Positions 2,006 through 63,754 of a stretch of DNA of 64,000 bases are shown in pieces (the first letter of the stretch is position 1; every line of letters starts with the position of its first letter). Under the pieces are notes generated by a model. The model was not told where the DNA came from and did no database searches. It was given only the letters and a program-made list of their open reading frames with translations. Position numbers and translations under genes: made by a program. This DNA is from a virus (taxonomy: Duplodnaviria > Heunggongvirae > Uroviricota > Caudoviricetes), in IMG/VR virus record IMGVR_UViG_3300044535_000502. One strand, written 5' to 3'.

Positions 2006-3196
2006 ATGCGTACCATTCAGATGGACAAGCGTGAGAAGTTTATTGCCATTGCCAGCGCAACTGGTAAAGAGTTTATGACATTGCAGGAAGTCAAAAGCCT
2101 GTGTGCAGAAAATGATATCAAGGAACCTCAATGGTTCCTCAAAGACCTAGCCAATCGCGCAGGACGCGGCATGTATAAAATGCCTACTGCATTGGTTCAA
2201 AATGTTGTTCCCATGACTACTAAAAAGCCAGACACTAAAAAAGAAGTGGTTGATGCACCACGAATCTCCAATCTTGTAACTCAGTTGGAAACTGAGAATC
2301 TTGTTCCACAAAAGTACAAGAATTATGTTCCGTTTGGTAATTTTGATGACTTGGTTTCCATCTTCAAAAGCAACCAATTCTTTCCCATCTTTATCACTGG
2401 TCAATCTGGTAACGGTAAGACCATGTCCGTCGAACAGGCTTGTGCCAAACTTGGTCGCAAATTTATCTGTGTGTCAATGACACCTGACACCGATGAAGGC
2501 GACTTGCTTGGTAACTATGTACTGATTAATGGTCAGATGGAATGGCGTGATGGTCCTGTTACCGTAGCAGCCCGCCAAGGCGCTGTATTGTGTATTGACG
2601 AAATCGATTATGGTGCACAGAATTTGGCATGTCTCCAACGTGTTCTGGAAGGCAAACCATTCTTGCTGAAAAAGAAGAATGAATTGGTTGCACCCGCTGA
2701 GGGCTTTACCGTTGTTGCTACGGCTAACACAAAAGGTAAAGGCTCCGATGATGGTCGTTATATGTTCACCAACGTTTTGAACGAAGCCTTCCTTGAGCGT
2801 TTCTTGAATACCTATGAACAAGAATATCCACCAACCGCAGTTGAAAAGAAAATTGTGCGTAAGGAAATGGCTGCATTCGGTCGTCAAGATGATGAATTTG
2901 CCGATCTGTTGGTGACTTGGGCTGATATCACACGGAAGACCTTTGCAGAAGGTGGTGTGGACGAGATTATCTCCACTCGCCGTTTGGTACACATCTGCAA
3001 AACTTATGGTGTGCATGGTGACCGCCTGAAGGCTGTTGGCTTGTGTCTGAATCGTTTTGATATCGATACCAAGACATCCTTCCTTGACTTGTACACTAAA
3101 CTGGACGTTGAGGCTACAAAAGCCAAAATTCCTGCTGACGAACAGGCTGTTCCCACAATGAAGCGCGTTCCAGTTGATGAAGAAATTCCTTTCTAA
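2006..3196 (+). CDS. cobS: CobS-like MoxR-family AAA+ ATPase
   Basis: Walker A motif GQSGNGKTM and Walker B motif VLCIDEID. The ~397 aa length is typical of phage CobS. The start was chosen at MRTIQ, which has a GGAG ribosome-binding site 7 nt upstream. Confidence 0.7.
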   Translation: MRTIQMDKREKFIAIASATGKEFMTLQEVKSLCAENDIKEPQWFLKDLANRAGRGMYKMPTALVQNVVPMTTKKPDTKKEVVDAPRISNLVTQLETENLVPQKYKNYVPFGNFDDLVSIFKSNQFFPIFITGQSGNGKTMSVEQACAKLGRKFICVSMTPDTDEGDLLGNYVLINGQMEWRDGPVTVAARQGAVLCIDEIDYGAQNLACLQRVLEGKPFLLKKKNELVAPAEGFTVVATANTKGKGSDDGRYMFTNVLNEAFLERFLNTYEQEYPPTAVEKKIVRKEMAAFGRQDDEFADLLVTWADITRKTFAEGGVDEIISTRRLVHICKTYGVHGDRLKAVGLCLNRFDIDTKTSFLDLYTKLDVEATKAKIPADEQAVPTMKRVPVDEEIPF

Positions 3197-24714: not shown

Positions 24715-27246
24715 ATGAAGTTCAGACAATATTTAGAAGAAACAACAGAAAAACATGCGGTCCTTGCGTTCGGACGCATGAATCCACCAACAACCGGTCA
24801 TGCAAAACTGGTTGATAAAGTCAAAGATGTTGCTAAGTCTGTGAGAGGAACACACCACGTGGTTCTATCGCATTCACAGGACGCTGAGAAGAATCCACTC
24901 TCAGGTGAGCAAAAAGTCAAACACGCACAACGATATTTTCCTGACACGAATATCACAACCTCCAGTAAAGAACATCCAAACTTTCTGGCTCAAGCATCAA
25001 AACTCCACAAAGCTGGCGCTACACATTTGCACATGGTTGCAGGATCCGATAGAACTGGTGAGTATGAGAAGATTTTACACAAATACAATGGCGTAAAAGG
25101 TACGCATGGATACTTCAAGTTTCGTGGTATTCACGTACACTCCGCTGGTGAGCGTGATCCTGATGCTGAGGGTGTATCTGGTATGTCTGCATCCAAGATG
25201 CGTAGCCATGCATCAAAAGGCAACTTCAAAGAATTCAAAAAAGGCATTCCAAGTCACGTAGCGCCAGAACACGCTAAAGAATTGTATAATGATGTGCGCA
25301 AGGGAATGCAAGTCAAAGAAGATTTCCGATCACAAATTCAGATGATCCTATCTGAGGGTGTCCACGATAAAGGCATCTTCAAGGCTGTGTTTCTATCGGG
25401 CGGTCCAGGCTCAGGTAAAGACTATGTGTTGGATAACACACTTGCTGGTCATGGCTTGATTGAAATCAACTCAGACAAAGCACTTGAGTTTCTGATGGAC
25501 AAGAATAATCTGGACAAGAAAATGCCAGAGACTGAAGCTGATGCACGGACACTTGTTCGCGGTAAAGCAAAAGACATGACAGAGTTGAAGCAGAAGCTGG
25601 CGCTGTTGGGTCGCAACGGCATCATTATCAATGGCACAGGCGATGATCCCGCAAAGTATGCCAAGATAAAGAAAAACTTAGAAGAAATTGGCTATGAAAC
25701 TTCTATGGTTGCCGTTGTTACACGCGATGAAATTTCTGCACAGAGAAACGTTGAGCGTGGGCAAAGAGGTGGTCGTACAGTTCCTGAGAATATTCGTAAA
25801 GAAAAGTGGGACGCAGTAAACAATTCACGCCCAGAGATGGCTAAGTTGTTTGGCAACAGCTATATTGAATTTGATAACTCTGAAGACTTGCGCACCGCAG
25901 CACCAGAAGTGGTCAAAGCCAAGAAAGAAGAGATGAACAACATCTTCAAGACTGTCCAAAAGTTTGTTCAAGCACCACCTAAGAATGAGCAAGCTAAGGC
26001 TTGGGTTGCTGGTGAACTACAGAAGAAAGACACCTTGCCTGTTCCTAAGAAAGGCACGGAACTGTCTATTCCACACTCCGCTGAGGGCGAAAACAAAGCA
26101 ACTGATGAAGCTAGACGCCTTGGGCTACAATACTATGGCTATGGCCGATATGGTAAGAATGGTAAAGTCACACATCACACAGTTCACGGAACTTTGGTGC
26201 AGGATCCAACACACGCTGAACAGCAAAAGATGATTAAGAAAACTGCTGAAGTTCCTATGAGTGGAGCTAGTAGCCAAAAGCCTGTGCCCAAGAAACCAGT
26301 CAAAGAGTCTATCAACGAAGATTTTCAGAATCTTTTTGAGGCCGTTTCAGTTACTTTCAAAGCTGATACCCCAGAAGAGCTACAAAAAGCAATGAAGATG
26401 CTGACTGGCAATGGAGATGCAGAAGTGGAAGAGCAGGAAGTTGAGGAGCACGTGGACCACACAGAAATGTCTGATTCTGGTGCATACAATCTATTGACGC
26501 TCGGAAAATCCATGTTTGTCTCCGAAAGTATCAGTGGTGAAAGAACTGCCGTAAAAGATGGAGCTACATATATTGCATCAGGCAACAAGCCTAAAGTATA
26601 TGCAATACGAAACAATGCTGCTAAAGACGCACACACCAAAGGTGGTGAAGTCGTTAAGACAGACAAAGGTTACATAGTTAAATTAAAGGAGAATGTAAAT
26701 GTTGAAATTCGTGAAAAGTTTCTTTGTGAAGAGCAAACCGCCAGTGGAACCGGAGCCACAACCATTGCCGAAAGTGGAAGCACCAGCCGTAGTGCCGGAG
26801 TCAGCACCGGAGCCACAACCATTGCCGAAAGTGGAAGTTCCGGTCGTAGTAGTACCAGAGCCATTACCGAAAGTGGAAGTGGAAGTTCCAGTGGTAACAG
26901 TGCAGGAACAAGTGCCAGTGCCAGTGCCGAAGCCAGCACCAAAAACATCCACGAAGCCAGCCGCTTTAAAGGCAAGCTCACCCTCTCGCAAGCCAAAAAC
27001 ACGTTCAAAGAAGCCATCGACAAAGGCATAGAAACTGGCATGTCCATGGCTGCTGGTGGCGAAGGCATTGGGCGTGACATGGGCGAAATCAATGACAAGA
27101 ATGGCAAAGTGAATCCTCTGAAAAAGAAACCTGTTGCTGAAATGGGTGGGGATTCAACCACAGCGTCAATTGGTGCACAAAAACAAGATGAACTGGCTAA
27201 ACATGGCATATCACTTAGCACGTTCAGAGGAAAGAATTACCTATGA
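24715..27246 (+). CDS. multidomain protein: N-terminal cytidylyl/adenylyl-transferase-like domain, central P-loop kinase domain, and a C-terminal Ser/Thr/Gly-rich repeat region
   Basis: MNPPTTGH is an HxGH-type motif and GMSASKMR an ISSTxxR-like motif, together indicating the nucleotidyltransferase alpha/beta fold. GGPGSGKD is a Walker A motif with a downstream lid. The C-terminus carries TTIAESGS repeats. A GGAG ribosome-binding site is present. 843 aa. Confidence 0.5.
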   Translation: MKFRQYLEETTEKHAVLAFGRMNPPTTGHAKLVDKVKDVAKSVRGTHHVVLSHSQDAEKNPLSGEQKVKHAQRYFPDTNITTSSKEHPNFLAQASKLHKAGATHLHMVAGSDRTGEYEKILHKYNGVKGTHGYFKFRGIHVHSAGERDPDAEGVSGMSASKMRSHASKGNFKEFKKGIPSHVAPEHAKELYNDVRKGMQVKEDFRSQIQMILSEGVHDKGIFKAVFLSGGPGSGKDYVLDNTLAGHGLIEINSDKALEFLMDKNNLDKKMPETEADARTLVRGKAKDMTELKQKLALLGRNGIIINGTGDDPAKYAKIKKNLEEIGYETSMVAVVTRDEISAQRNVERGQRGGRTVPENIRKEKWDAVNNSRPEMAKLFGNSYIEFDNSEDLRTAAPEVVKAKKEEMNNIFKTVQKFVQAPPKNEQAKAWVAGELQKKDTLPVPKKGTELSIPHSAEGENKATDEARRLGLQYYGYGRYGKNGKVTHHTVHGTLVQDPTHAEQQKMIKKTAEVPMSGASSQKPVPKKPVKESINEDFQNLFEAVSVTFKADTPEELQKAMKMLTGNGDAEVEEQEVEEHVDHTEMSDSGAYNLLTLGKSMFVSESISGERTAVKDGATYIASGNKPKVYAIRNNAAKDAHTKGGEVVKTDKGYIVKLKENVNVEIREKFLCEEQTASGTGATTIAESGSTSRSAGVSTGATTIAESGSSGRSSTRAITESGSGSSSGNSAGTSASASAEASTKNIHEASRFKGKLTLSQAKNTFKEAIDKGIETGMSMAAGGEGIGRDMGEINDKNGKVNPLKKKPVAEMGGDSTTASIGAQKQDELAKHGISLSTFRGKNYL
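26745..26945 (+). repeat. GC-rich tandem repeat (~57-bp unit, about 3 copies) inside the 24715..27246 CDS
   Basis: ggagccacaaccattgccgaaagtggaag recurs at about 26751, 26808 and 26857. It leaves long open frames on both strands. Confidence 0.7.
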
Positions 27247-29299: not shown

Positions 29300-31093
29300 A
29301 TGTTCAACGATAAAATTCTAAAATCAGTGGCCGAAGCAGTGAAAGCTGTTGTGGACGAAGCACTGAAAGGCGATCAACACAAGATCGATAAAAACAAAAA
29401 CGGCAAAGTTGATGCACACGACTTCAAGTTGTTGCGCAAAGAGGAAGCCAAGAAGCCTGCTAGCCCATTTGACTGGAAGAATACTCCACGCCAAACTGCT
29501 GAAAAAGGTGAGAAGACTGGCCACGATGCTAAGAAAATCTCCACAGGCACTGTGTACACTAAGAAGTATACAAAAGAAGAAGCATCTCAAGAAGAGTTCA
29601 ACAAAGAGATCAAGATAGCACAAGACAAGTCCATTGGCAAGAGCAAAGCTGAAGTTGCAAAGCCTGCTGTGCAAGCTGTCAAGCAAGAATCTGTTGAACA
29701 ACTAGATGAACTGAGCAAGAAGACTCTTGGTAAATATATTAAGGCTGCCCGAGATAATGTGAGAAATAGATCATACATGATAGGACGTGATGTTTCTAAA
29801 CTTAAACCGTCCCCACAACATGTCCGTAAAGTTAAAAATTCAACTACTGGTATACAAAGAGCGGTAGATCGTTTGACTAAAGAAGAAGTTGAACAAATTG
29901 ATGAGTTAAGTAAGAAGACACTCGGTTCATACATCAATAAAGCTGTAAGCAGTGTAGCAAATAAAGATTATAATATTGGACGTCTGCACTTTGGCGACCA
30001 ACCTGAAAAAAAAGCTGATGTGAAACAGCAAGCCCGCGAAATAAAAAAAGATGAACGTGTGATTAAAAAGCGAAATCGCGGCGTTGATCGCGCTGTTAAA
30101 CGTTTGACTAGAGAAGAATATGAAAACTTAGATGAACTTGAATTTACTGTTGAAGATGTTGAAAACTTCATGCAAACTGAAGAATTTGAACAACTAGATG
30201 AACTGAGCAAGAAGACTCTTGGTAAATATATCAATAAAGCCCAAGGCAGGGTGAGGTATGCCGCACACGAGGTAGGTCATCATCTTACTACACTGGAACG
30301 AAATCGTAGGACGCCAGGAAACTTCCGTAGACTTAAAAATTCAACTACTGGTATACAAAGAGCGGTAGATCGTTTGACTAAAGAAGAAGTTGAACAAATT
30401 GATGAGTTAAGTAAGAAGACACTCGGTTCATACATCAATAAAGCTGTAAGAAGTCAAGCAGATAGAGAGCATAATATTGCAAGCGTGGCGTATGGTGCCC
30501 AACCTGAAAAAAAAGCTGATCAGGTTCGTAACGCCCGCGAAATGAAAGCAGATCAGCGTGTGATTAAAAAGCGAGACCGCGGCGTTAAAAAAGCTGTTAA
30601 ACGTTTGACTAGAGAAGAATATGAAAACTTAGATGAACTTGAATTTACTGTTGAAGATGTTGAAAACTTCATGCAAACTGAAGAATTTGAACAACTAGAT
30701 GAACTAAAGAAGTCTACACTAGCATCCTATGTCAAGAAAGCATCTCATGATGTTGCACACAAGGGCGCATTGACTCGTCAACATGCTAATGATTCAGAAG
30801 CTGCACGTAAAGATTCACGCTACAATGATGCTAGAAAGAGCATGGAGAAAGCAGATAAAACTTTTGCTAAGTCTTGGAAGCGCCGCGAAAACATGGGCAA
30901 AGCTGTTGATCGTTTAGCTAAGGAAGAAGTTGAGCAAATTGAAGAGCGTTCATTGACCACCGCTGAAAAGGCTGCATTGGAAAAGAATGTCAAAGGCATG
31001 AAGAAGAACATTGCTGGCTTCAAAGAGCGTTATGGCAAAGATGCTAAGTCTGTTATGTACGCTACGGCCACCAAGCAAGCCAAGGGAGAGTAA
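29300..31093 (+). CDS. Lys/Glu-rich internally repeated protein (EEVEQIDELSKKTLGSYINKA motif repeated five or more times)
   Basis: 597 aa. A strong ribosome-binding site AAAGGAAA is present. Two ~167-aa tandem units are nearly identical. Confidence 0.6.
   Translation: MFNDKILKSVAEAVKAVVDEALKGDQHKIDKNKNGKVDAHDFKLLRKEEAKKPASPFDWKNTPRQTAEKGEKTGHDAKKISTGTVYTKKYTKEEASQEEFNKEIKIAQDKSIGKSKAEVAKPAVQAVKQESVEQLDELSKKTLGKYIKAARDNVRNRSYMIGRDVSKLKPSPQHVRKVKNSTTGIQRAVDRLTKEEVEQIDELSKKTLGSYINKAVSSVANKDYNIGRLHFGDQPEKKADVKQQAREIKKDERVIKKRNRGVDRAVKRLTREEYENLDELEFTVEDVENFMQTEEFEQLDELSKKTLGKYINKAQGRVRYAAHEVGHHLTTLERNRRTPGNFRRLKNSTTGIQRAVDRLTKEEVEQIDELSKKTLGSYINKAVRSQADREHNIASVAYGAQPEKKADQVRNAREMKADQRVIKKRDRGVKKAVKRLTREEYENLDELEFTVEDVENFMQTEEFEQLDELKKSTLASYVKKASHDVAHKGALTRQHANDSEAARKDSRYNDARKSMEKADKTFAKSWKRRENMGKAVDRLAKEEVEQIEERSLTTAEKAALEKNVKGMKKNIAGFKERYGKDAKSVMYATATKQAKGE
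29836..30835 (+). repeat. ~500-bp tandem duplication (2 copies) within the 29300..31093 CDS
   Basis: Segments at about 29841-29950 and 30341-30450 are near-identical, as are 30003-30210 and 30503-30710. Confidence 0.7.
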
Positions 31094-31094
31094 T

Positions 31095-32762
31095 ATGAGA
31101 AGTTTCAAGCAGATTGCAAGTCTTGTCCGCGGTGAGGACATTTTGGAAGAGGGTAAAAAGTCTCTTGGAACAGGATGGATGCTGAAGGCTGATCCGAAGT
31201 TGGGAAAAGCTGTCAAAGATAAGCTCGACCTTGCTAAAAAACGTCAGGCAACTTATGGTGATAAATCTGCTGGCAAATCCATCAAAGAAGAAGAAACCAT
31301 TGAAGAAGCTGGTCTGTGGGACAACATTCATGCCAAGCGTGAAAGAATCAAAAAAGGTTCAGGTGAACGTATGCGTAAGCCTGGCTCAGAGGGTGCACCA
31401 TCCGAGAAGGATTTGAAAAACTCACAGACTAATGAAGAGGTTGAACTGGCCGAAGCTGACGCCAAAGACTATCACTCAGTACATGTCAATGGTCGTCACT
31501 GGAAAACATTTGATACCAAGTCTCATGCCGAGAACGTTGCAAAGAAAGTCAAAGGCGCTACAGTACATAAGTATGATGCTGAGAGACTGCAACAAAACTA
31601 TGGTGCAAAATCTGCGGCTAGAAATGCGGCACGTGGTAAGCAGTGGGATGAGTCTGTTGATGTTGAGCAACTAGATGAAATGCCTGGTGCTAACATGGAT
31701 ACCCGTGCTGTGCATCAACATCTGAAGAAGCGTGGTTGGAAACTTTCGCGCACATCAGGTAGCCACGATGTATACACACATCCAGAAGCAAAGCACCACA
31801 TTCCAGTTCCACGTCATCGTCAATTAAAGGCACCATTGGTCAAAGGTATTCTGAAACAAGCTGAAATCAATGAGCAAGCTGAATCGGATACCACCGAAAA
31901 AACTGAGATGGCCCAAACGCAACTACACTTCATCAAGTATGCCGCTGAAGAAATTCTTGAGTTCATTGAGATGGGTGGTGAAATTGAAGAGTGGTATCAG
32001 AACAAACTATCTAAAGTTCAAAGTGATGTAGAATCACTACACTCATACATTGAAGGTGAGTCTCGCCGTACAGGGATGAAGGAAGAAGTTGAGCAGATTG
32101 ATGAGTTGTCAAAGAAAACTCTTGGCTCCTATGTCAATAAAGCAATGGACAGCGCAAGAGAATTGCCTGGCACCGGCACAAACGCTGAGGCGAGTAAGAA
32201 GACAAAACGATACGCTGCTGTTTCTGCTGCTGCATATCGCACACAAGGTCTTGCACCAAGAAAAGGTACTGATATGTTTAAGAAGTACAAAGCTGAGAGT
32301 GTTGTGGCGGAAGAAGTTGGTCAAACTAGCAACTCCAACGAGAATCCGGACGCTGGTCGTTTCACATCCGGACCAGCTAAGAAGCCTGCGAAGCCTACAC
32401 CTATCATTACTGCTGAACAAACTGCAACAGACTTGGGTAAAGAGCGTTATGAGGTTCCATTTGATGGTCCTTATACCAAAAATACAACAAAAGTGACAAC
32501 AGACAAATCTGGCGCAAAACACACAGCAATGTCTAGAGTTAAGCACCTCGCAAAGACTGCTGCACGTAAACAAGCAGGTCTAAAAGAAGAGCAAGAGCCG
32601 GAAGATTCTTTTGAGAAAACAAGCACACCTGCGAAACGTTCACTGTCTAAGACTGCTGGCATCGTAAAAGATTTGGCTAAGAATTCTAAGTCATCTAGCA
32701 AAGAAAAAGCTGATACATTCCAAGCTGAACCTGAGCTATCATCACAGATCATCAAAACATAA
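31095..32762 (+). CDS. Lys/Glu-rich protein with an embedded HicA-toxin-like (YcfA) domain and one copy of the EEVEQIDELSKKTLGSY repeat
   Basis: Residues ~201-257 read KKRGWKLSRTSGSHDVYTHPEAKHHIPVPRHRQLKAPLVKGILKQAEI, which matches the HicA signature (GSH..HP..VP.H..L..g.L..IlkqA). The start was chosen at MRSFKQ, which has an AAGGGAGAG ribosome-binding site. Confidence 0.55.
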   Translation: MRSFKQIASLVRGEDILEEGKKSLGTGWMLKADPKLGKAVKDKLDLAKKRQATYGDKSAGKSIKEEETIEEAGLWDNIHAKRERIKKGSGERMRKPGSEGAPSEKDLKNSQTNEEVELAEADAKDYHSVHVNGRHWKTFDTKSHAENVAKKVKGATVHKYDAERLQQNYGAKSAARNAARGKQWDESVDVEQLDEMPGANMDTRAVHQHLKKRGWKLSRTSGSHDVYTHPEAKHHIPVPRHRQLKAPLVKGILKQAEINEQAESDTTEKTEMAQTQLHFIKYAAEEILEFIEMGGEIEEWYQNKLSKVQSDVESLHSYIEGESRRTGMKEEVEQIDELSKKTLGSYVNKAMDSARELPGTGTNAEASKKTKRYAAVSAAAYRTQGLAPRKGTDMFKKYKAESVVAEEVGQTSNSNENPDAGRFTSGPAKKPAKPTPIITAEQTATDLGKERYEVPFDGPYTKNTTKVTTDKSGAKHTAMSRVKHLAKTAARKQAGLKEEQEPEDSFEKTSTPAKRSLSKTAGIVKDLAKNSKSSSKEKADTFQAEPELSSQIIKT

Positions 32763-51314: not shown

Positions 51315-51542
51315 TCATTCTTCAACTCCGAAATGTTCTTTAATGATTTCATCGGCAAATAAATCGTGTATGCCTTTACCAGTGGAACACCGTTTGGTAA
51401 GTTCCATACATTTTTTCACAATCAACTCGGCGAACTTTTCACTATATTGATACACCCACATCCCACTTCGGTCTGAACTTCCGGTATTTTTATCAGCATA
51501 CCTACCAGCCTCAAACATTAGTTCTTCAATTCGTTCGTTCAT
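51315..51542 (-). CDS. member of the MNERIKEL/EKFAELIV/HFGVEE small-protein family (copy A)
   Basis: MNERIEELMFEA...EKFAELIVKKCMEL...KEHFGVEE. The start was set at the internal ATG that overlaps the upstream stop (ATGA). Confidence 0.5.
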   Translation of the reverse strand: MNERIEELMFEAGRYADKNTGSSDRSGMWVYQYSEKFAELIVKKCMELTKRCSTGKGIHDLFADEIIKEHFGVEE

Positions 51543-51787
51543 ACAATCTCCATAATATGCCAAACAAATGACCCCTCGAGACAGGTCCCAATGTAGAACA
51601 TATTCTCGTCCAGTTCCCATCCAGTCCCTACAACCTCAAAGGTTCGAGGTTCTATTTGAGCATCAGTGTCTACCAGTGCCCACATACAGAAATCTTTTCC
51701 CTGCATATTGCAATGGAGTATACGGGCACCAACCGGCATTTCTGTGTCGGAGCGACCGGTTACTGTGTATTTGTAAATTGTTTTCAT
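51539..51787 (-). CDS. hypothetical protein
   Basis: 82 aa. ATGA overlaps at both ends. Confidence 0.4.
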   Translation of the reverse strand: MKTIYKYTVTGRSDTEMPVGARILHCNMQGKDFCMWALVDTDAQIEPRTFEVVGTGWELDENMFYIGTCLEGSFVWHIMEIV

Positions 51788-52017
51788 TCTTGGACTCCAT
51801 AGCGTGTACGAATGTCGTGAGCGTAACCACCGAGTTCGGGCATGATGTATGAATCTTCGTCCAACATCTTAGCACAATCTTCGGCGATCAATTGGGCGAA
51901 CTTTTCTCCCCAGCCACTGACTAATTCAACAGCTTTTTCTCTAGACACTGGCGTAACTGGATCACCGTAGTGACTCTGAAAAGCCTCAATCATAAGTTCT
52001 TTAATTCGTTCGTTCAT
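51784..52017 (-). CDS. member of the MNERIKEL family (copy B)
   Basis: MNERIKELMIEA...EKFAQLIAEDCAKM...RYGVQE. Confidence 0.5.
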   Translation of the reverse strand: MNERIKELMIEAFQSHYGDPVTPVSREKAVELVSGWGEKFAQLIAEDCAKMLDEDSYIMPELGGYAHDIRTRYGVQE

Positions 52018-52800: not shown

Positions 52801-53128
52801 TGGACATATACTCAATCCACTCCAATAGAATGGCCTTTGCATCCACGTACGGTACACCAAACTCCCGTTCAATATAGGGTGTAGCTCCCCACATGTTGGT
52901 GGCACCAGAATCCCTCAGTTGGATTAGGTAGTCGTGGTGCTCTTGTGTGAGGACTTTACCTAGTAGGGTTTTTTCCCTGGGCTCTACTCGTTCCGGAAGA
53001 CCATCCATGCATTCGTCACACCAGTTGGCGCCACTACCCACATAGACACTACCGTCTTCGGTATGGATTTCTGTTACGGTTTGTTCATGGCCGCAATCGG
53101 TGCAGCGGTACAATGCTTTAACGTTCAT
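52796..53128 (-). CDS. zinc-ribbon protein
   Basis: CTDCGHE...CDEC. 110 aa. Confidence 0.4.
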   Translation of the reverse strand: MNVKALYRCTDCGHEQTVTEIHTEDGSVYVGSGANWCDECMDGLPERVEPREKTLLGKVLTQEHHDYLIQLRDSGATNMWGATPYIEREFGVPYVDAKAILLEWIEYMSK

Positions 53129-53337
53129 TCTTCAACTCCGAAATGTTTTGTAATCTTATTGAAGACCTCAAAGTTACCAGTTGCTTGTCCATCAGTAAGT
53201 GCAATCTCGGCACATTCTGCCACAATCAACTGGGCGAACTTTTCTTTATCAAAATCTTCAATCATTACCTGAGTTGTGGCATTCCAGTATTTGCTTCTAG
53301 TAGCCTGTTCAGCAAGTTCTTTTATTCGTTCACTCAC
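53125..53337 (-). CDS. member of the MNERIKEL family (copy C; apparent GTG start)
   Basis: (V/M)SERIKELAEQA...EKFAQLIVAECAEI...KHFGVEE. Confidence 0.45.
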   Translation of the reverse strand: MSERIKELAEQATRSKYWNATTQVMIEDFDKEKFAQLIVAECAEIALTDGQATGNFEVFNKITKHFGVEE

Positions 53338-55097: not shown

Positions 55098-55145
55098 ATT
55101 ATACCAGGTTATAGGTAATTGTCAAGTCAGTGAAAAGTACTCAAT
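55098..55145 (-). promoter_or_regulatory. early promoter cassette copy 7
   Basis: The plus strand reads attataccaggttataggtaattgtcaagtcagtgaaaagtactcaa. Confidence 0.65.
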
Positions 55146-55344
55146 TTCCTGCATAGATGGAAACATACTCTTCACCTTCGTCTAGGTCAAATGGACCACA
55201 ATCACCATCTACTTCATCGGTAATGAATGCTGAGGACAATGGACCACAATCACCTGAGGCGCCGTGCCGATAGAAAACTTCCTTATCGCCATGACCCTCG
55301 GTTTGGAGTTTTTGCAATTGTTCAATAAATTTATTCAGTTTCAT
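55141..55344 (-). CDS. hypothetical acidic protein
   Basis: 67 aa. A TAGGATGA ribosome-binding site is present. Confidence 0.4.
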   Translation of the reverse strand: MKLNKFIEQLQKLQTEGHGDKEVFYRHGASGDCGPLSSAFITDEVDGDCGPFDLDEGEEYVSIYAGN

Positions 55345-55350
55345 AATATC

Positions 55351-55400
55351 ATCCTACGAATTCGTCAATGGTACGGATCAAGTCAGTGGAAAGTACTCAG
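55351..55400 (-). pseudogene. degenerate cassette plus a 3' remnant of a paralog of gene 56047..56343 (encodes ...[11 protein letters not shown])
   Basis: A 27-nt identity (CGTACCATTGACGAATTCGTAGGATGA) with the 3' end of 56047..56343. The upstream AAAGTACTCAG box is retained, but the -35/-10 elements are replaced. Confidence 0.4.
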
Positions 55401-55403
55401 TAT

Positions 55404-55787
55404 TTACAAGTTCAACAATTCACGCTCTTCCGCAGTCAACAATTCATTGACCTTACGCAATGCCTCTGCCTTTACTTCGGCCAGGCGCTTACGTTCAGCA
55501 AGTTCCGCTTCATGGCGATCCAGATCATATTCCAACGATTCTAATTGTTCTTGGCTATCGGGAGAATGTGCGTAAGCCAAAGAGAAATAATCATAACGGT
55601 CGTTACGGTTAGTAAGTTGGAACTTGTTGTTGTTACTTACAGTGAGTTCAAAGTATGCTTTTGTAGCACGTGCCAGAGCAAGCATGAGGCGCTGTGGATA
55701 TTCATCCACTTGCTTTGCGAGGTATGTTTCACGCTCTTGGGCGTATCGTGCATTACGTTGTGCTACTGTTTCACGTGCCATTTCCAA
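55404..55787 (-). CDS. coiled-coil protein
   Basis: 127 aa, Glu/Arg/Leu-rich. Confidence 0.4.
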   Translation of the reverse strand: MEMARETVAQRNARYAQERETYLAKQVDEYPQRLMLALARATKAYFELTVSNNNKFQLTNRNDRYDYFSLAYAHSPDSQEQLESLEYDLDRHEAELAERKRLAEVKAEALRKVNELLTAEERELLNL

Positions 55788-55814
55788 CTCCTGTTTCTTT
55801 CTATCTAAGTCTCT

Positions 55815-55862
55815 ATTATACCAGGTTATAGGTAATTGTCAAGTCAGTCGGAAGTACTCTTT
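55815..55862 (-). promoter_or_regulatory. early promoter cassette copy 8
   Basis: The plus strand reads attataccaggttataggtaattgtcaagtcagtcggaagtactc. Confidence 0.65.
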
Positions 55863-56050
55863 TTATTGGGTGTGAATAGTTCCAACGCCTTAGCTGGATA
55901 AATCTGGACTGAACCCACCTCTGTGAAACTTTCCACAGCATAGCCTTCTGGTGTAAGTTTGGTGCTATAAGTTCCCACAATGGTGCCATGCCACTGTGAG
56001 CCAGACACTTTTCTAACGGTGTCACCTAGTTTGAATTTCATTTGGATCAT
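55844..56050 (-). CDS. small protein (DUF2158-like SH3/KOW-like?)
   Basis: [27 protein letters not shown] overlap with the upstream gene. Confidence 0.35.
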
Positions 56051-56343
56051 CCTACGAATTCGTCAATGGTACGAATCAAGTCCTCAGCATATACGTCCAC
56101 CACTATCTTGCGGACTTTCACTGTAGGAACGCCTTTGACCTTACGGACTTGCATAAATGTGATGTTATACAGGTCAGGGCAAGGCTTGTATTGGATATAC
56201 ACCAAACCTTTGAATGGTGTCATACCAGTTGTTTTAAATTGTAAGCCATCACCCATATCAGTGAGGTCTACTGCACCCCAAGCATACATAGCCCATGGGT
56301 CTAGATATCCAATTTGATCAAGAATAGTCCGAGCGATTTTCAT
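56047..56343 (-). CDS. hypothetical protein
   Basis: 98 aa. The C-terminus ...[12 protein letters not shown] is duplicated as a remnant at 55351..55400. Confidence 0.4.
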
Positions 56344-56457
56344 GATAACTCCAATGAAAGGATTAACCTAAGGTCTCAACGGAGCCACTAACAGTGCCAC
56401 CAACCAAGACCAACACAACACAAACAACGACTAAAAATTCAAACATAAAAACTCCAA

Positions 56458-56646
56458 TCAAACAAAGTCAAAAGCAAATTGATCACCAACAGGAGAGACA
56501 ATCACGCCGTAAGCGGGATTTTCCAAAATCGTTTGGATTTTAGCGGCCTCACGTGGAGTGCATGTCACGAAAAGAGTACCGCTGGTGAATTCAGCATCGG
56601 TGGTGACTTTAGCAACAAGGGAGAGGATTTTTGATTCGAAGGCCAT
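56458..56646 (-). CDS. hypothetical protein, first gene after cassette copy 9
   Basis: 62 aa. Confidence 0.4.
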   Translation of the reverse strand: MAFESKILSLVAKVTTDAEFTSGTLFVTCTPREAAKIQTILENPAYGVIVSPVGDQFAFDFV

Positions 56647-56745: not shown

Positions 56746-57351
56746 TTAGTATATCCAAAATCCTAATCGTTCTGCTGAGGGCGATTCGTACCATGAAGAA
56801 CCTGGTGGTTGCTCAATGGATTCGTTTTTCCAAACGGGTATTATAGTGTTGCATGAATGGTTGGTGAAGTCGTCATTGTACCTTGCATGGACTTCAATCG
56901 GATTACCACCAACATACTCTACATTGATCCATTCGTATTTTTCTGATAAGTGCTTTAGCGGAAGTGGTATTGGAATGTGCTTATCTATTTTAGTCCATCT
57001 GCAAAATCTATCAAGCCTATCACTGTTTCTAAACCCTTGTACACAAATGTGTTGTTGACCATAATGATAGTCTACTGAGATATGGTCACCAGTGAAAAAC
57101 TCACACCAAAAATAACCATCTGGAATTGCGTTAACATCATTGGGCGTTAGCCATTGCTTTGCTGCACCACGACTCATCATGCGGAGATTGGTTATAGGGC
57201 GAACAATGTACCAATTAGGGCTATCAACTGGAACACCTGCGGGCGCGGCTTTATATCCAAGTTTCTTGGCTAGGATTAGCTTATCATAAATCCAAAGATC
57301 GTCAGCATCTAATGTATGCCAAACATCTTTGTCATCTATCAGGAAAGTCAA
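56746..57351 (-). CDS. hypothetical protein
   Basis: 201 aa. DKLILAKKLGYKAAPAGV is weakly ATP-grasp-like. Confidence 0.3.
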   Translation of the reverse strand: MTFLIDDKDVWHTLDADDLWIYDKLILAKKLGYKAAPAGVPVDSPNWYIVRPITNLRMMSRGAAKQWLTPNDVNAIPDGYFWCEFFTGDHISVDYHYGQQHICVQGFRNSDRLDRFCRWTKIDKHIPIPLPLKHLSEKYEWINVEYVGGNPIEVHARYNDDFTNHSCNTIIPVWKNESIEQPPGSSWYESPSAERLGFWIY

Positions 57352-58273: not shown

Positions 58274-58552
58274 TTACTTAACTCCAAAATGATTTACAAT
58301 TTCACGACCAGCTTCACTAGCAGCCATATCCCATGTATGTCCGAACGTTTTTCTAACTTCAACATCAGTATCTGGAAAAGGTGTTGCTCTGGCAATTCTA
58401 GCACATTCCTGAACAATTAGCTCGGCAAACTTTTCTAATGTGATCCACTCGTCTGTACTGTCAGTTTCAACAGTTTTGATTTCATGTGTTTCAGTTAGAT
58501 CATAAAGGTAATAGCCGGCTTCTCTTGCAAGGTCTTTAATTCGTTCGTTCAT
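58274..58552 (-). CDS. member of the MNERIKEL family (copy D)
   Basis: MNERIKDLAREA...EKFAELIVQECARI...NHFGVK. Confidence 0.5.
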   Translation of the reverse strand: MNERIKDLAREAGYYLYDLTETHEIKTVETDSTDEWITLEKFAELIVQECARIARATPFPDTDVEVRKTFGHTWDMAASEAGREIVNHFGVK

Positions 58553-58994
58553 ACGTAGCCTTTCCTAACTTGGCATCTACCATACGGTGTCGCTCAATGT
58601 CTTCTATAAACTTTTCATTAGGTCGGTTGATAACATAAGCCGGTCTACCACCAAAGTACACTGCAAAGCCACCAACCAAGTCGCTTTCAATGATACAAAC
58701 ATATGCACTGGTAATAGCTTGACCACCAATCCCACCGAAGCCTAGTGCTGTGCTACTCCAGGTCTGTGGAAACATATTGTACACAGTCAAGTCATATAAT
58801 GAATGCTTGCGAGACTTCTCAACAAAACAATCGGCTGGTGCTACCGCTGTTTTCATTTCTTCTCGCGTCAGCGTAGCTCGCCACTTATCATGTTTGGCCC
58901 AGTCGCGGTCTTGATACTTGTATTCAGGAAACGCCACATATGCGGCATGAGCCATACAGCCAGCTAGGGTTTCAATAGGGTTAGTTGCGTTCAT
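58536..58994 (-). CDS. hypothetical protein
   Basis: 152 aa. Confidence 0.35.
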   Translation of the reverse strand: MNATNPIETLAGCMAHAAYVAFPEYKYQDRDWAKHDKWRATLTREEMKTAVAPADCFVEKSRKHSLYDLTVYNMFPQTWSSTALGFGGIGGQAITSAYVCIIESDLVGGFAVYFGGRPAYVINRPNEKFIEDIERHRMVDAKLGKATYERTN

Positions 58995-59233
58995 TCTTCA
59001 ATTCCGAAATGTTCTTTTATCTTTTCACTGATAAGATGTGTATATTCACACTCCTCGGTATCGGGAGTGTTCATCTGAGCAACTTCGGCACATTCCTTCA
59101 CAATCAACTCAGCAAACTTTTCATGGTCAAAGAATTCACGGTAATGTGTAATACCTGTATCAGGATTATACACATCAGTCGTCACTGTTGCTTCCAGAAT
59201 AAATTCTTGGATTCGCGTATTAGTCGTGGTCAT
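58991..59233 (-). CDS. member of the MNERIKEL family (copy E; start uncertain)
   Basis: ...IQEFILEA...EKFAELIVKECAEV...KEHFGIEE. Confidence 0.4.
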   Translation of the reverse strand: MTTTNTRIQEFILEATVTTDVYNPDTGITHYREFFDHEKFAELIVKECAEVAQMNTPDTEECEYTHLISEKIKEHFGIEE

Positions 59234-59702
59234 ATTCTTGAACATCAAAACCTTCACGGGTCGCAAACACCTTGCAGTGATCGCCGAACATGTCAAGGAA
59301 CACATCATCCGAAATCTTAGAAAGCAATTTGCGCAATGCTTCACTATTCGCAGAAACGGAATCAGGAATCAATTCTTCATTGTGATCACCATAGTCGGGA
59401 TCATTGATCCAAACAGTTTCATCATCACCTTCATATTCACCATACCGGACACTATCATAGTCCACTGCATTGGAAACAAATGCGTATGATGCATAGCAAT
59501 TGAATGTACATGCATCTCCATCATTGAAGTATGGAGTGTATTGACGCCAGCCGACAACCTTTACCTCAGGATTTGCATCAAAGAATTCTTTGAATGCAAG
59601 TTTGAAAATTTCTTGGCCGCGTTTCTGGTATGTCGCTTTCAGTTCTTCCATTTCGGCGTTCATTTGGTCGAACAATGCTTCGATTTCGTTGATTTGTTTC
59701 AT
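59220..59702 (-). CDS. hypothetical acidic protein
   Basis: 160 aa. Confidence 0.35.
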   Translation of the reverse strand: MKQINEIEALFDQMNAEMEELKATYQKRGQEIFKLAFKEFFDANPEVKVVGWRQYTPYFNDGDACTFNCYASYAFVSNAVDYDSVRYGEYEGDDETVWINDPDYGDHNEELIPDSVSANSEALRKLLSKISDDVFLDMFGDHCKVFATREGFDVQEYDHD

Positions 59703-63387: not shown

Positions 63388-63534
63388 ATGTCTGTTATGT
63401 CAGAGCTTTGGATGGATGTTCAAGATATGCTGGAACGCGGCGAGTCGTGGCAAAATGTGGCTGACACGCTGAACGTGCCTGTGTCATGGGTTGAGGAAGT
63501 CGCCCGCGAGATGGCCGAGTTTGAAAATGAATAA
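63388..63534 (+). CDS. small acidic ORF (48 aa)
   Basis: MSVMSELWMDVQDMLERGESW.... ATGA overlap with the next gene. Confidence 0.3.
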   Translation: MSVMSELWMDVQDMLERGESWQNVADTLNVPVSWVEEVAREMAEFENE

Positions 63535-63754
63535 ACAATTTAGAGAACTTGCTGAACAAGCAAGCATTGAGTTTACTTATGACGTAACCGAAACACCAGC
63601 GCGAGCATTTGCTGAATGTTGGGAAGATGAATTGGAAAAGTTTGCCGAGTTGATTGTTCGGCAATGTGCATTGACTGCTGGTCTTATGGAGCATGATGGT
63701 CGTAAAAACATCGGCGCAAATATTCTAGATAGTTTTGGAATTCAAGATGACTGA
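63527..63754 (+). CDS. member of the MNERIKEL family on the plus strand (copy F)
   Basis: MNKQFRELAEQA...EKFAELIVRQCALT...DSFGIQDD. Confidence 0.45.
   Translation: MNKQFRELAEQASIEFTYDVTETPARAFAECWEDELEKFAELIVRQCALTAGLMEHDGRKNIGANILDSFGIQDD

Follow-up and report, generated by a model that had tools for sequence, protein, structure and literature searches.

How did the end of one gene of an uncultured phage come to lie, joined to a piece of a promoter, in front of a different gene? In the window (the whole stretch of 64,000 nucleotides analyzed here, from record IMGVR_UViG_3300044535_000502), the last codons of a 98-aa gene are found twice, once at the end of the intact gene and once as a fragment preceded by part of a repeated promoter cassette. 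The initial annotation took the fragment for what remained of a deleted paralog of the 98-aa gene. Here, the question is addressed by comparing this site with the corresponding gene orders in related viral contigs.

Results

A phage region punctuated by promoter cassettes

The window belongs to a large lytic phage that encodes a family B DNA polymerase, a DnaB-like helicase, and a ribonucleotide reductase. A megablast search with 3 kb around the site returned no GenBank phage match, and the first large ORF has <30% identity to proteins of cyanomyoviruses and Pelagibacter phages (tblastn); judged by these searches, the phage appears to be only distantly related to deposited phages. Between ~49.6 and 62.7 kb, small orphan ORFs on the minus strand are separated by 11 copies of a promoter cassette, each with a σ70-consensus early promoter. 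The cassette is composed of an upstream box, (T)GAGTACTTTnnnCTGAC, a perfect −35 element (TTGACA), a 16-nt spacer containing TG, a perfect −10 element (TATAAT), and a conserved leader, the promoter elements and the spacer being present in all 11 copies, and every copy lies upstream of small ORFs of 50 to 200 aa without a Pfam family. The spacer hairpin, UACC(AG)..(CU)GGUA, has only 4 to 6 bp, and some copies have an additional 6-bp AGUAC/GUACU hairpin upstream. When six cassettes were folded, one was clearly more stable than its shuffled counterparts (z = −3.3), the other five ranging from +0.3 to −1.2. Neither terminator-like sites nor G/C-rich terminator stems were found at the cassettes.

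At least six paralogs of a small family with the motifs MNERIKEL ... EKFAELIV.EC ... HFGVEE are scattered in this hyperplastic region (Table 1), and the related contigs L001 and L003 have further copies. Also, in two proteins encoded elsewhere in the window, a toxin-related domain lies inside a much longer protein (Table 1).

A 37-nt direct repeat flanks a two-gene insert

The sequence CGTACCATTGACGAATTCGTAGGATGA occurs exactly twice in the window, both times on the minus strand (55349–55375 and 56047–56073), and no match to this 27-mer was found in 100 dinucleotide-preserving shuffles, even with 3 mismatches allowed. The recurrence reported at the end of the 98-aa gene is therefore beyond chance, the position originally given for the fragment (55351..55380) being a few bases off. 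Moreover, the identity widens to a direct repeat of 37 nt, GACTTGAT[C/T]CGTACCATTGACGAATTCGTAGGATGAT on the minus strand, whose two copies lie 698 nt apart and are identical at 36 of 37 positions. The in-frame reading of the fragment as the end of a 98-aa gene proved correct, and the 10-bp palindrome ACGAATTCGT described for the fragment is present in both copies of the repeat. An upstream TGA, in TGAGTACT, closes the reading frame of the downstream copy (hereafter, the remnant), which would therefore be untranslated.

Table 1. Positions in the window of the features discussed in the text.
Feature	Position	Strand	Description
98-aa gene	56047..56343	minus	Intact ORF; weak PHROGs match, phrog_9437 (E = 1.4e-4)
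Upstream repeat copy	56046..56082	minus	3' end of the intact 98-aa gene; variant GATTCGT
Inserted segment, 661 nt	55385..56045	minus	DHFR, full cassette, 125-aa gene, and upstream half-cassette; absent from L001, L108, L110, and L111
R67/DfrB-type (type II) DHFR homolog, 65 aa	55844..56041	minus	Pfam PF06442; alternative ATG at 56050 gives 68 aa
Full promoter cassette in the insert	55796..55859	minus	−35 TTGACA at 55842–55837; TG-extended −10 TATAAT at 55820–55815; 12/12 consensus
125-aa gene	55404..55781	minus	Large family, 154 clusters
Truncated cassette, TGAGTACTTTCCACTGACTTGA	55399–55378	minus	Upstream box and first 4 nt of the −35 (TTGA)
Downstream repeat copy (remnant)	55348..55384	minus	Last 11 codons and stop of a 98-aa gene; variant GATCCGT
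67-aa gene	55141..55344	minus	Two GDCGP motifs; directly downstream of the 98-aa gene in relatives
32-aa hydrophobic ORF	56363–56461	minus	Between the 62-aa and 98-aa genes
201-aa gene	56746–57351	minus	phrog_3577
MNERIKEL-family paralogs	51315–51620, 51784–52017, 53125–53337, 58274–58552, 58991–59344	minus	
MNERIKEL-family paralog	~63491–63754	plus	
843-aa protein	24715–27246	plus	Zeta-toxin/AAA_33 kinase domain
583-aa protein	31011–32762	plus	HicA-toxin domain

The remnant is preceded by a truncated cassette that matches the corresponding part of the 11 cassettes and lacks the rest of the −35 element, the spacer, and the −10 element. A cassette box without −35 and −10 had been described at this place; the box is present and the −10 is absent, but the first 4 nt of the −35 are kept. 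A consensus promoter scan detected no promoter in either the truncated cassette or the remnant.

Alignments of the window to L001, L108, and L110 (BLAST) end at 56046 and restart at 55384, and both flanks fall on the same 37 nt of the relative, which means that the 661 nt between the repeats are extra. The first gene of this segment matches PF06442 with 78.9 bits (cutoff 25; E = 2.5e-22) and PDB entry 1vie with E = 3.6e-17 (about 3e-17 for 1vie and 6ny0), 53 residues being aligned to the R67 structures. In the alignment to 6ny0, the motif GSVQIYP is retained, as is another motif of 10 residues; VQIY is the active-site pore motif of R67. Its product is thus a clear homolog of the R67/DfrB type (type II, the trimethoprim-insensitive class). 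The gene has no promoter of its own, directly follows the 98-aa gene, and would use an AGGA located within the end of that gene. Relatives of this dihydrofolate reductase (DHFR) family occur in 151 viral stretches of IMG/VR, and a search for the donor among 80 viral loci gave just 69 to 77% nucleotide identity, limited to the ORF, so none of these was retained as the donor. On the other side of the full cassette, the 125-aa gene belongs to a family whose usual place is behind an rIIB-like gene, in a phage group other than this one and with another promoter cassette. Both the usual place of the 125-aa family and the scattered distribution of the DHFR family indicate that the cargo is foreign to the backbone of this phage.

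No Pfam match was obtained for the 98-, 67-, and 125-aa proteins, and PHROGs gave a single weak match (Table 1). The 98-aa family comprises only seven clusters at 90% identity, and its genes form two groups, one with the window, L108, and L123 and another with L001, L003, L119, and L110, with ~88% identity between them. The 67-aa protein has an internally duplicated motif (GASGDCGPLSS and DGDCGPFDL), and homologs, some of them with their own promoter (L009), turn up in unrelated contexts in at least 15 viral contigs.

Gene order in related contigs

The genomic contexts of six of the seven clusters of the 98-aa family were examined, and five arrangements were found downstream of this gene (Table 2). 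Independent assemblies from JGI and NCBI agree completely (100% identity) over 6.3 kb on the arrangement of the window, which is therefore not an assembly artifact; its 98-aa protein is present in 59 collection blocks.

Table 2. Gene orders downstream of the 98-aa gene (numbers are protein lengths in aa).
Arrangement	Found in	Order
V1	L001, L110, L111	98 → 67 → cassette → 74
V2	L108	98 → 67 → cassette → 69 → 74
V3	L003, L119, L120, and the most distant homolog, L112	98 → cassette → next gene
V4	L123	98 → DHFR → cassette → 69 → 74
V5	Window	98 → DHFR → cassette → 125 → half cassette + 37 nt → 67 → cassette → 74

In V1 and V2, the 98-aa gene ends with ...GACTTGATCCGTACCATTGACGAATTCGTAGGATGA and the 67-aa gene begins 4 nt further on (TATTATG). 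The junction between both genes in L108, L110, and L111 corresponds base for base to the fragment of the window plus the start of its 67-aa gene. According to this comparison, the fragment is the native end of an orthologous 98-aa gene, which always preceded the 67-aa gene and included its ribosome-binding site. The fragment had been said to form now the leader and ribosome-binding region of the 67-aa gene; it is indeed in the leader, but L108, L110, and L111 indicate that it was always the translation-initiation region of that gene. In V3, the TGA stop codon of the 98-aa gene is formed by the first bases of TGAGTACTTT, and in L003 and L119 a cassette with a 69-aa gene takes the place of the 67-aa gene of L001.

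The single difference between both copies of the repeat separates these contigs. The T allele (GATTCGT) of the intact gene in the window is shared with L123, the only other contig with a DHFR gene after the 98-aa gene, and the C allele (GATCCGT) of the remnant is found in L108, L110, L111, L001, and L003. A difference in divergence between the left and right sides of the site with respect to L108 (95.4% and 93.8%) was also considered, being too small to be informative.

Other small differences are present in this part of the genome. A further small indel in this operon concerns the 32-aa hydrophobic ORF, which is absent in L110 and L111 (positions 2989–3001), just 11 nt separating the 62-aa gene from the 98-aa gene in both contigs. 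Also, the 201-aa gene corresponds to a second window-specific insertion of ~592 nt between a 64-aa gene and the next cassette, absent from L001, L003, L108, and L110; it is not flanked by a repeat, and its presence turns the final two residues of the 64-aa protein from EK into DR.

The junction lies within seven shared nucleotides

The last 7 nt of the truncated cassette, GACTTGA (55384–55378), are also the first of the remnant copy of the repeat. In a 602-nt contig from ENA (L124, ERZ28593664), found through a protein index, the 125-aa gene ends in front of TAAATAC, and a complete cassette, TGAGTACTTTCTACTGACTTGACAATTACC...TATAAT, comes next. A three-way comparison of the window, L124, and L108, anchored on GACTTGA, shows that the window is identical to L124 at 298 of 300 positions to the left of this heptamer and at 18 of 60 to the right. 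Conversely, the identity to L108, with its junction between the 98-aa and 67-aa genes, is 17 of 60 positions to the left and 227 of 240 to the right. In the cassette, GACTTGA bridges the end of the upstream box and the first bases of the −35 (ACTGACTTGA, followed by CAATT), and in the 98-aa gene it spans the codons E-D-L-I (GAGGACTTGA, followed by TCCGT).

This comparison supports the proposal that recombination joined a 3' piece of the 98-aa gene to a truncated promoter cassette. Because the switch takes place inside the shared 7 nt, it points to microhomology-mediated illegitimate recombination rather than to an exchange between cassettes; homologous cassette–cassette recombination was not found at this junction, where GACTTGA is the only shared stretch. 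The junction is thus one of a cassette with a coding sequence, the cassette being merely one partner, and for this reason it does not provide the direct evidence, claimed for it initially, that the cassettes mediate gene shuffling.

Such evidence comes from another breakpoint. L123, a contig of 960 nt (ERZ28593942), is 100% identical to the window from ~56100 to 55829, which includes the gene end, the DHFR gene, the upstream box, the −35, and ATTACCT. The alignment of L123 500–560 with window 55843–55790 is identical through TTGACAATTACCT and then becomes unrelated within the cassette spacer, downstream of which L123 has the 69-aa gene and the window has the 125-aa gene. This breakpoint is the best evidence in the data for a cassette-mediated exchange of modules and, together with the series V1 to V4, supports a role of the cassettes as exchange points in general.

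A probable crossover between two variants of the phage

The 37-nt repeat is probably the scar left when two variants of the same phage recombined in a single non-allelic, microhomology-mediated crossover. Variant A would have the order 98-aa gene, DHFR, cassette, 125-aa gene, and full cassette, and variant B the order 98-aa gene, 67-aa gene, cassette, and 74-aa gene. The GACTTGA of the cassette that follows the 125-aa gene in A would be joined to the GACTTGA within the 98-aa gene of B, generating a recombinant that follows A up to the half cassette and from there on B, beginning with the final 30 nt of its 98-aa gene and continuing with its 67-aa gene. The net effect would be a 661-nt module of two genes placed between formerly adjacent genes and flanked by a duplication of 37 nt.

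Several observations agree with this scheme. The T and C alleles and the identity to L123 suggest that the left part of the window comes from the DHFR-bearing variant A and the right part from the 67-bearing variant B, an allele argument based on a single SNP; with this origin of both parts, one non-allelic crossover of A with B yields the structure of the window directly. Moreover, both parental junctions were recovered from metagenomes (L124 for the A side and L108 for the B side), and the left side of type A is independently present in L123 (98 → DHFR → cassette). A long contig of variant A was not found, its two junctions coming from the short contigs L124 and L123, and pattern scans for the end of the 125-aa gene plus a full cassette gave no match in IMG/VR and JGI metagenome contigs. 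L124 is itself a mosaic: in the leader and the first ~77 nt of its 125-aa gene, it shows full identity to the L019 phage group, which has a different promoter type, and the rest is of the window type. This contig could be either a natural intragenic recombinant that shows the entry of the 125-aa gene into the phage group or a chimeric assembly, which the mosaic makes possible. Nonetheless, the relevant 45 nt of L124 have a private variant (TTTCT versus TTTCC), and therefore they cannot stem from reads of the window lineage.

Regarding polarity, sites without the insert are found in both sequence groups of the 98-aa gene; they could arise by precise deletion between the 37-nt repeats and alone do not fix the direction of the change. 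However, the remnant is contiguous with the initiation region of the 67-aa gene as in the intact junction, which indicates that the adjacency of the 98-aa and 67-aa genes predates the arrangement of the window.

A deleted paralog, as originally claimed, would imply that one genome had two full 98-aa genes, generated, for example, by an unequal cassette–cassette exchange that duplicated the 62-32-98 block, and that a deletion from a cassette into the second gene left its last 11 codons. This gives the same end structure and, given that cassettes are exchange points in this phage group, a cassette-mediated tandem duplication is mechanistically possible. Nonetheless, two events are needed, the second being the same illegitimate junction anyway, and no genome with two complete copies was seen in the contexts of six of the seven clusters of the family. 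Moreover, the 98 → 67 adjacency is present in L001, L108, L110, and L111, and the remnant has the allele of the 67-linked ortholog instead of that of the resident copy, all of which makes a deleted paralog unlikely.

The same final structure is obtained equally if a circle of 698 nt, excised from A by recombination between two GACTTGA sites and containing the 37-nt gene end, the DHFR gene, the cassette, the 125-aa gene, and the half cassette, integrated into B in the manner of Campbell through 30 to 37 nt of homology. Integration would duplicate the homologous stretch, since a single crossover leaves the homologous segment as a direct repeat on either side of the insert, and encapsidated mini-circles of cassette-flanked ORFs have been shown in the T4-type phages phi1 and RB49 (PMC2839356). 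However, this route takes two steps where one linear crossover is enough, and circles are not in evidence here. Also, the T and C alleles require the crossover to occur in the first 8 nt of the repeat, whereby it collapses onto the microhomology model; integration of a circle is thus quite improbable.

Expression of the genes around the repeat

The last codons of the 98-aa gene hold a Shine-Dalgarno sequence, AGGA, that serves the next gene. In the remnant, this is the native AGGA of the 67-aa gene (55355–55352), located 7 nt before its ATG at 55344, and in the other copy AGGA lies 8 nt before the ATG of the DHFR gene at 56041. Neither a promoter nor a terminator-like site was found in the remnant, and therefore the 67-aa gene should be cotranscribed with the 125-aa gene from the promoter at 55842–55815, which would drive both. 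The 67-aa gene, presumably the last of a 62-32-98-67 operon in the past, would keep its native Shine-Dalgarno sequence and lose the translational coupling to the 98-aa gene, and the DHFR gene would use the other copy of the same Shine-Dalgarno sequence. A crossover nearer to the ATG would remove the ribosome-binding site at the expense of 67-aa expression; this may be why the joint that survived lies inside the upstream gene.

As both copies of the 37 nt lie directly upstream of a start codon, supply AGGA, and contain the palindrome, it can be asked if they are an independent functional element (a regulatory leader, an RNA structure, or a protein-binding palindrome) duplicated for both downstream genes. 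However, no RNA structure is apparent in the leader: the remnant, the native copy, and the L001 junction fold no better than shuffled sequences (z from +0.7 to +1.9), and an Rfam search over 52–59 kb gave nothing at E ≤ 0.1. No promoter is present, and the differences among relatives lie at synonymous codon positions, the pattern of coding DNA. The palindrome was discarded as a functional site: it spells the codons D-E-F-V and is broken by synonymous change in L001 and L112, so its presence would be incidental. Moreover, in L003, L119, and L112, the same gene end is directly followed by a cassette and not by a start codon. An independent conserved element is, on these grounds, very unlikely.

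Discussion

The closest described system is the modular shuffling associated with PeSL (promoter-early stem-loop) cassettes. In T4-type phages, these strong σ70 promoters with stem-loops are located in hyperplastic regions, where they mediate indels, and mini-circles can arise from them (Arbiol et al. 2010, PMC2839356; Comeau et al. 2014, PMC4122927). Like them, the cassettes of the window are repeated, have ~60 to 80 nt and consensus σ70 promoters, and lie among small orphan genes, with the stop codon of the upstream gene often within the cassette and the Shine-Dalgarno sequence and start codon at its 3' edge. Also, gene-sized indels between close relatives break at or in the cassettes, as in the −35/−10 spacer for L123 and the window. 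However, the joint in the window is one of a cassette with a coding sequence at 7 nt and not a homologous exchange between cassettes, and the hairpins are weak, with 4 to 6 bp and without G/C-rich terminator stems. Moreover, this phage, at most a putative member of the T4 superfamily, has no close relative among GenBank phages.

A second reference is the mosaicism of tailed phages. In the Hendrix/Hatfull model, mosaic joints and the addition of "moron"-type genes arise by illegitimate recombination, followed by selection. The insert described here resembles this pattern, as foreign genes, one of them with its own promoter, are inserted between adjacent backbone genes through a novel joint at a short microhomology, in line with the survival under selection of only those joints at gene boundaries. 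Unlike usual mosaic joints, this one lies inside a gene end and leaves a 37-nt duplication, a scar that is usually unseen, and the recombinant and both parental junctions were all recovered.

With respect to the cargo, the DHFR of the window matches PF06442 well above the threshold and keeps GSVQIYP, as R67/DfrB enzymes do. It differs from R67 in the absence of the long disordered N terminus (65 versus 78 aa) and, instead of being carried by an integron or a plasmid, it is found in the early region of a lytic phage. Phage-borne DfrB homologs had already been reported (PMC7265639; PMC9835603).

A broader reading considers the last ~37 nt of the 98-aa gene as a recurrent docking point for promoter-less ORF modules, with the DHFR-cassette-125 unit being a traveling circle of ~698 nt that integrates by short homology. 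It fits with the three different successors of this gene end in close relatives (the 67-aa gene, the DHFR gene, or a bare cassette) and with an insert flanked by direct repeats. If true, it would mean that genes are transferred by mini-circles in phages other than the classical T4-type coliphages, although no observation requires this reading, which is very unlikely.

Finally, the event inferred here, a crossover between two variants, is ordinary phage mosaic evolution, if cleanly resolved; it adds an example to a known kind of event and no new mechanism. It is rare for environmental data to show a mosaic joint in full, as they do here with the recombinant, the junctions of both parents, and the crossover located to exactly 7 nt. 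In this group of uncultured large lytic phages, the cassettes are involved in two kinds of exchange, the homologous swap between cassettes and the illegitimate joining to coding DNA, and the joint that survived retains the translation-initiation region of the downstream gene. Because the cargo includes a DfrB-like gene, the case illustrates how such genes may move between phage genomes.
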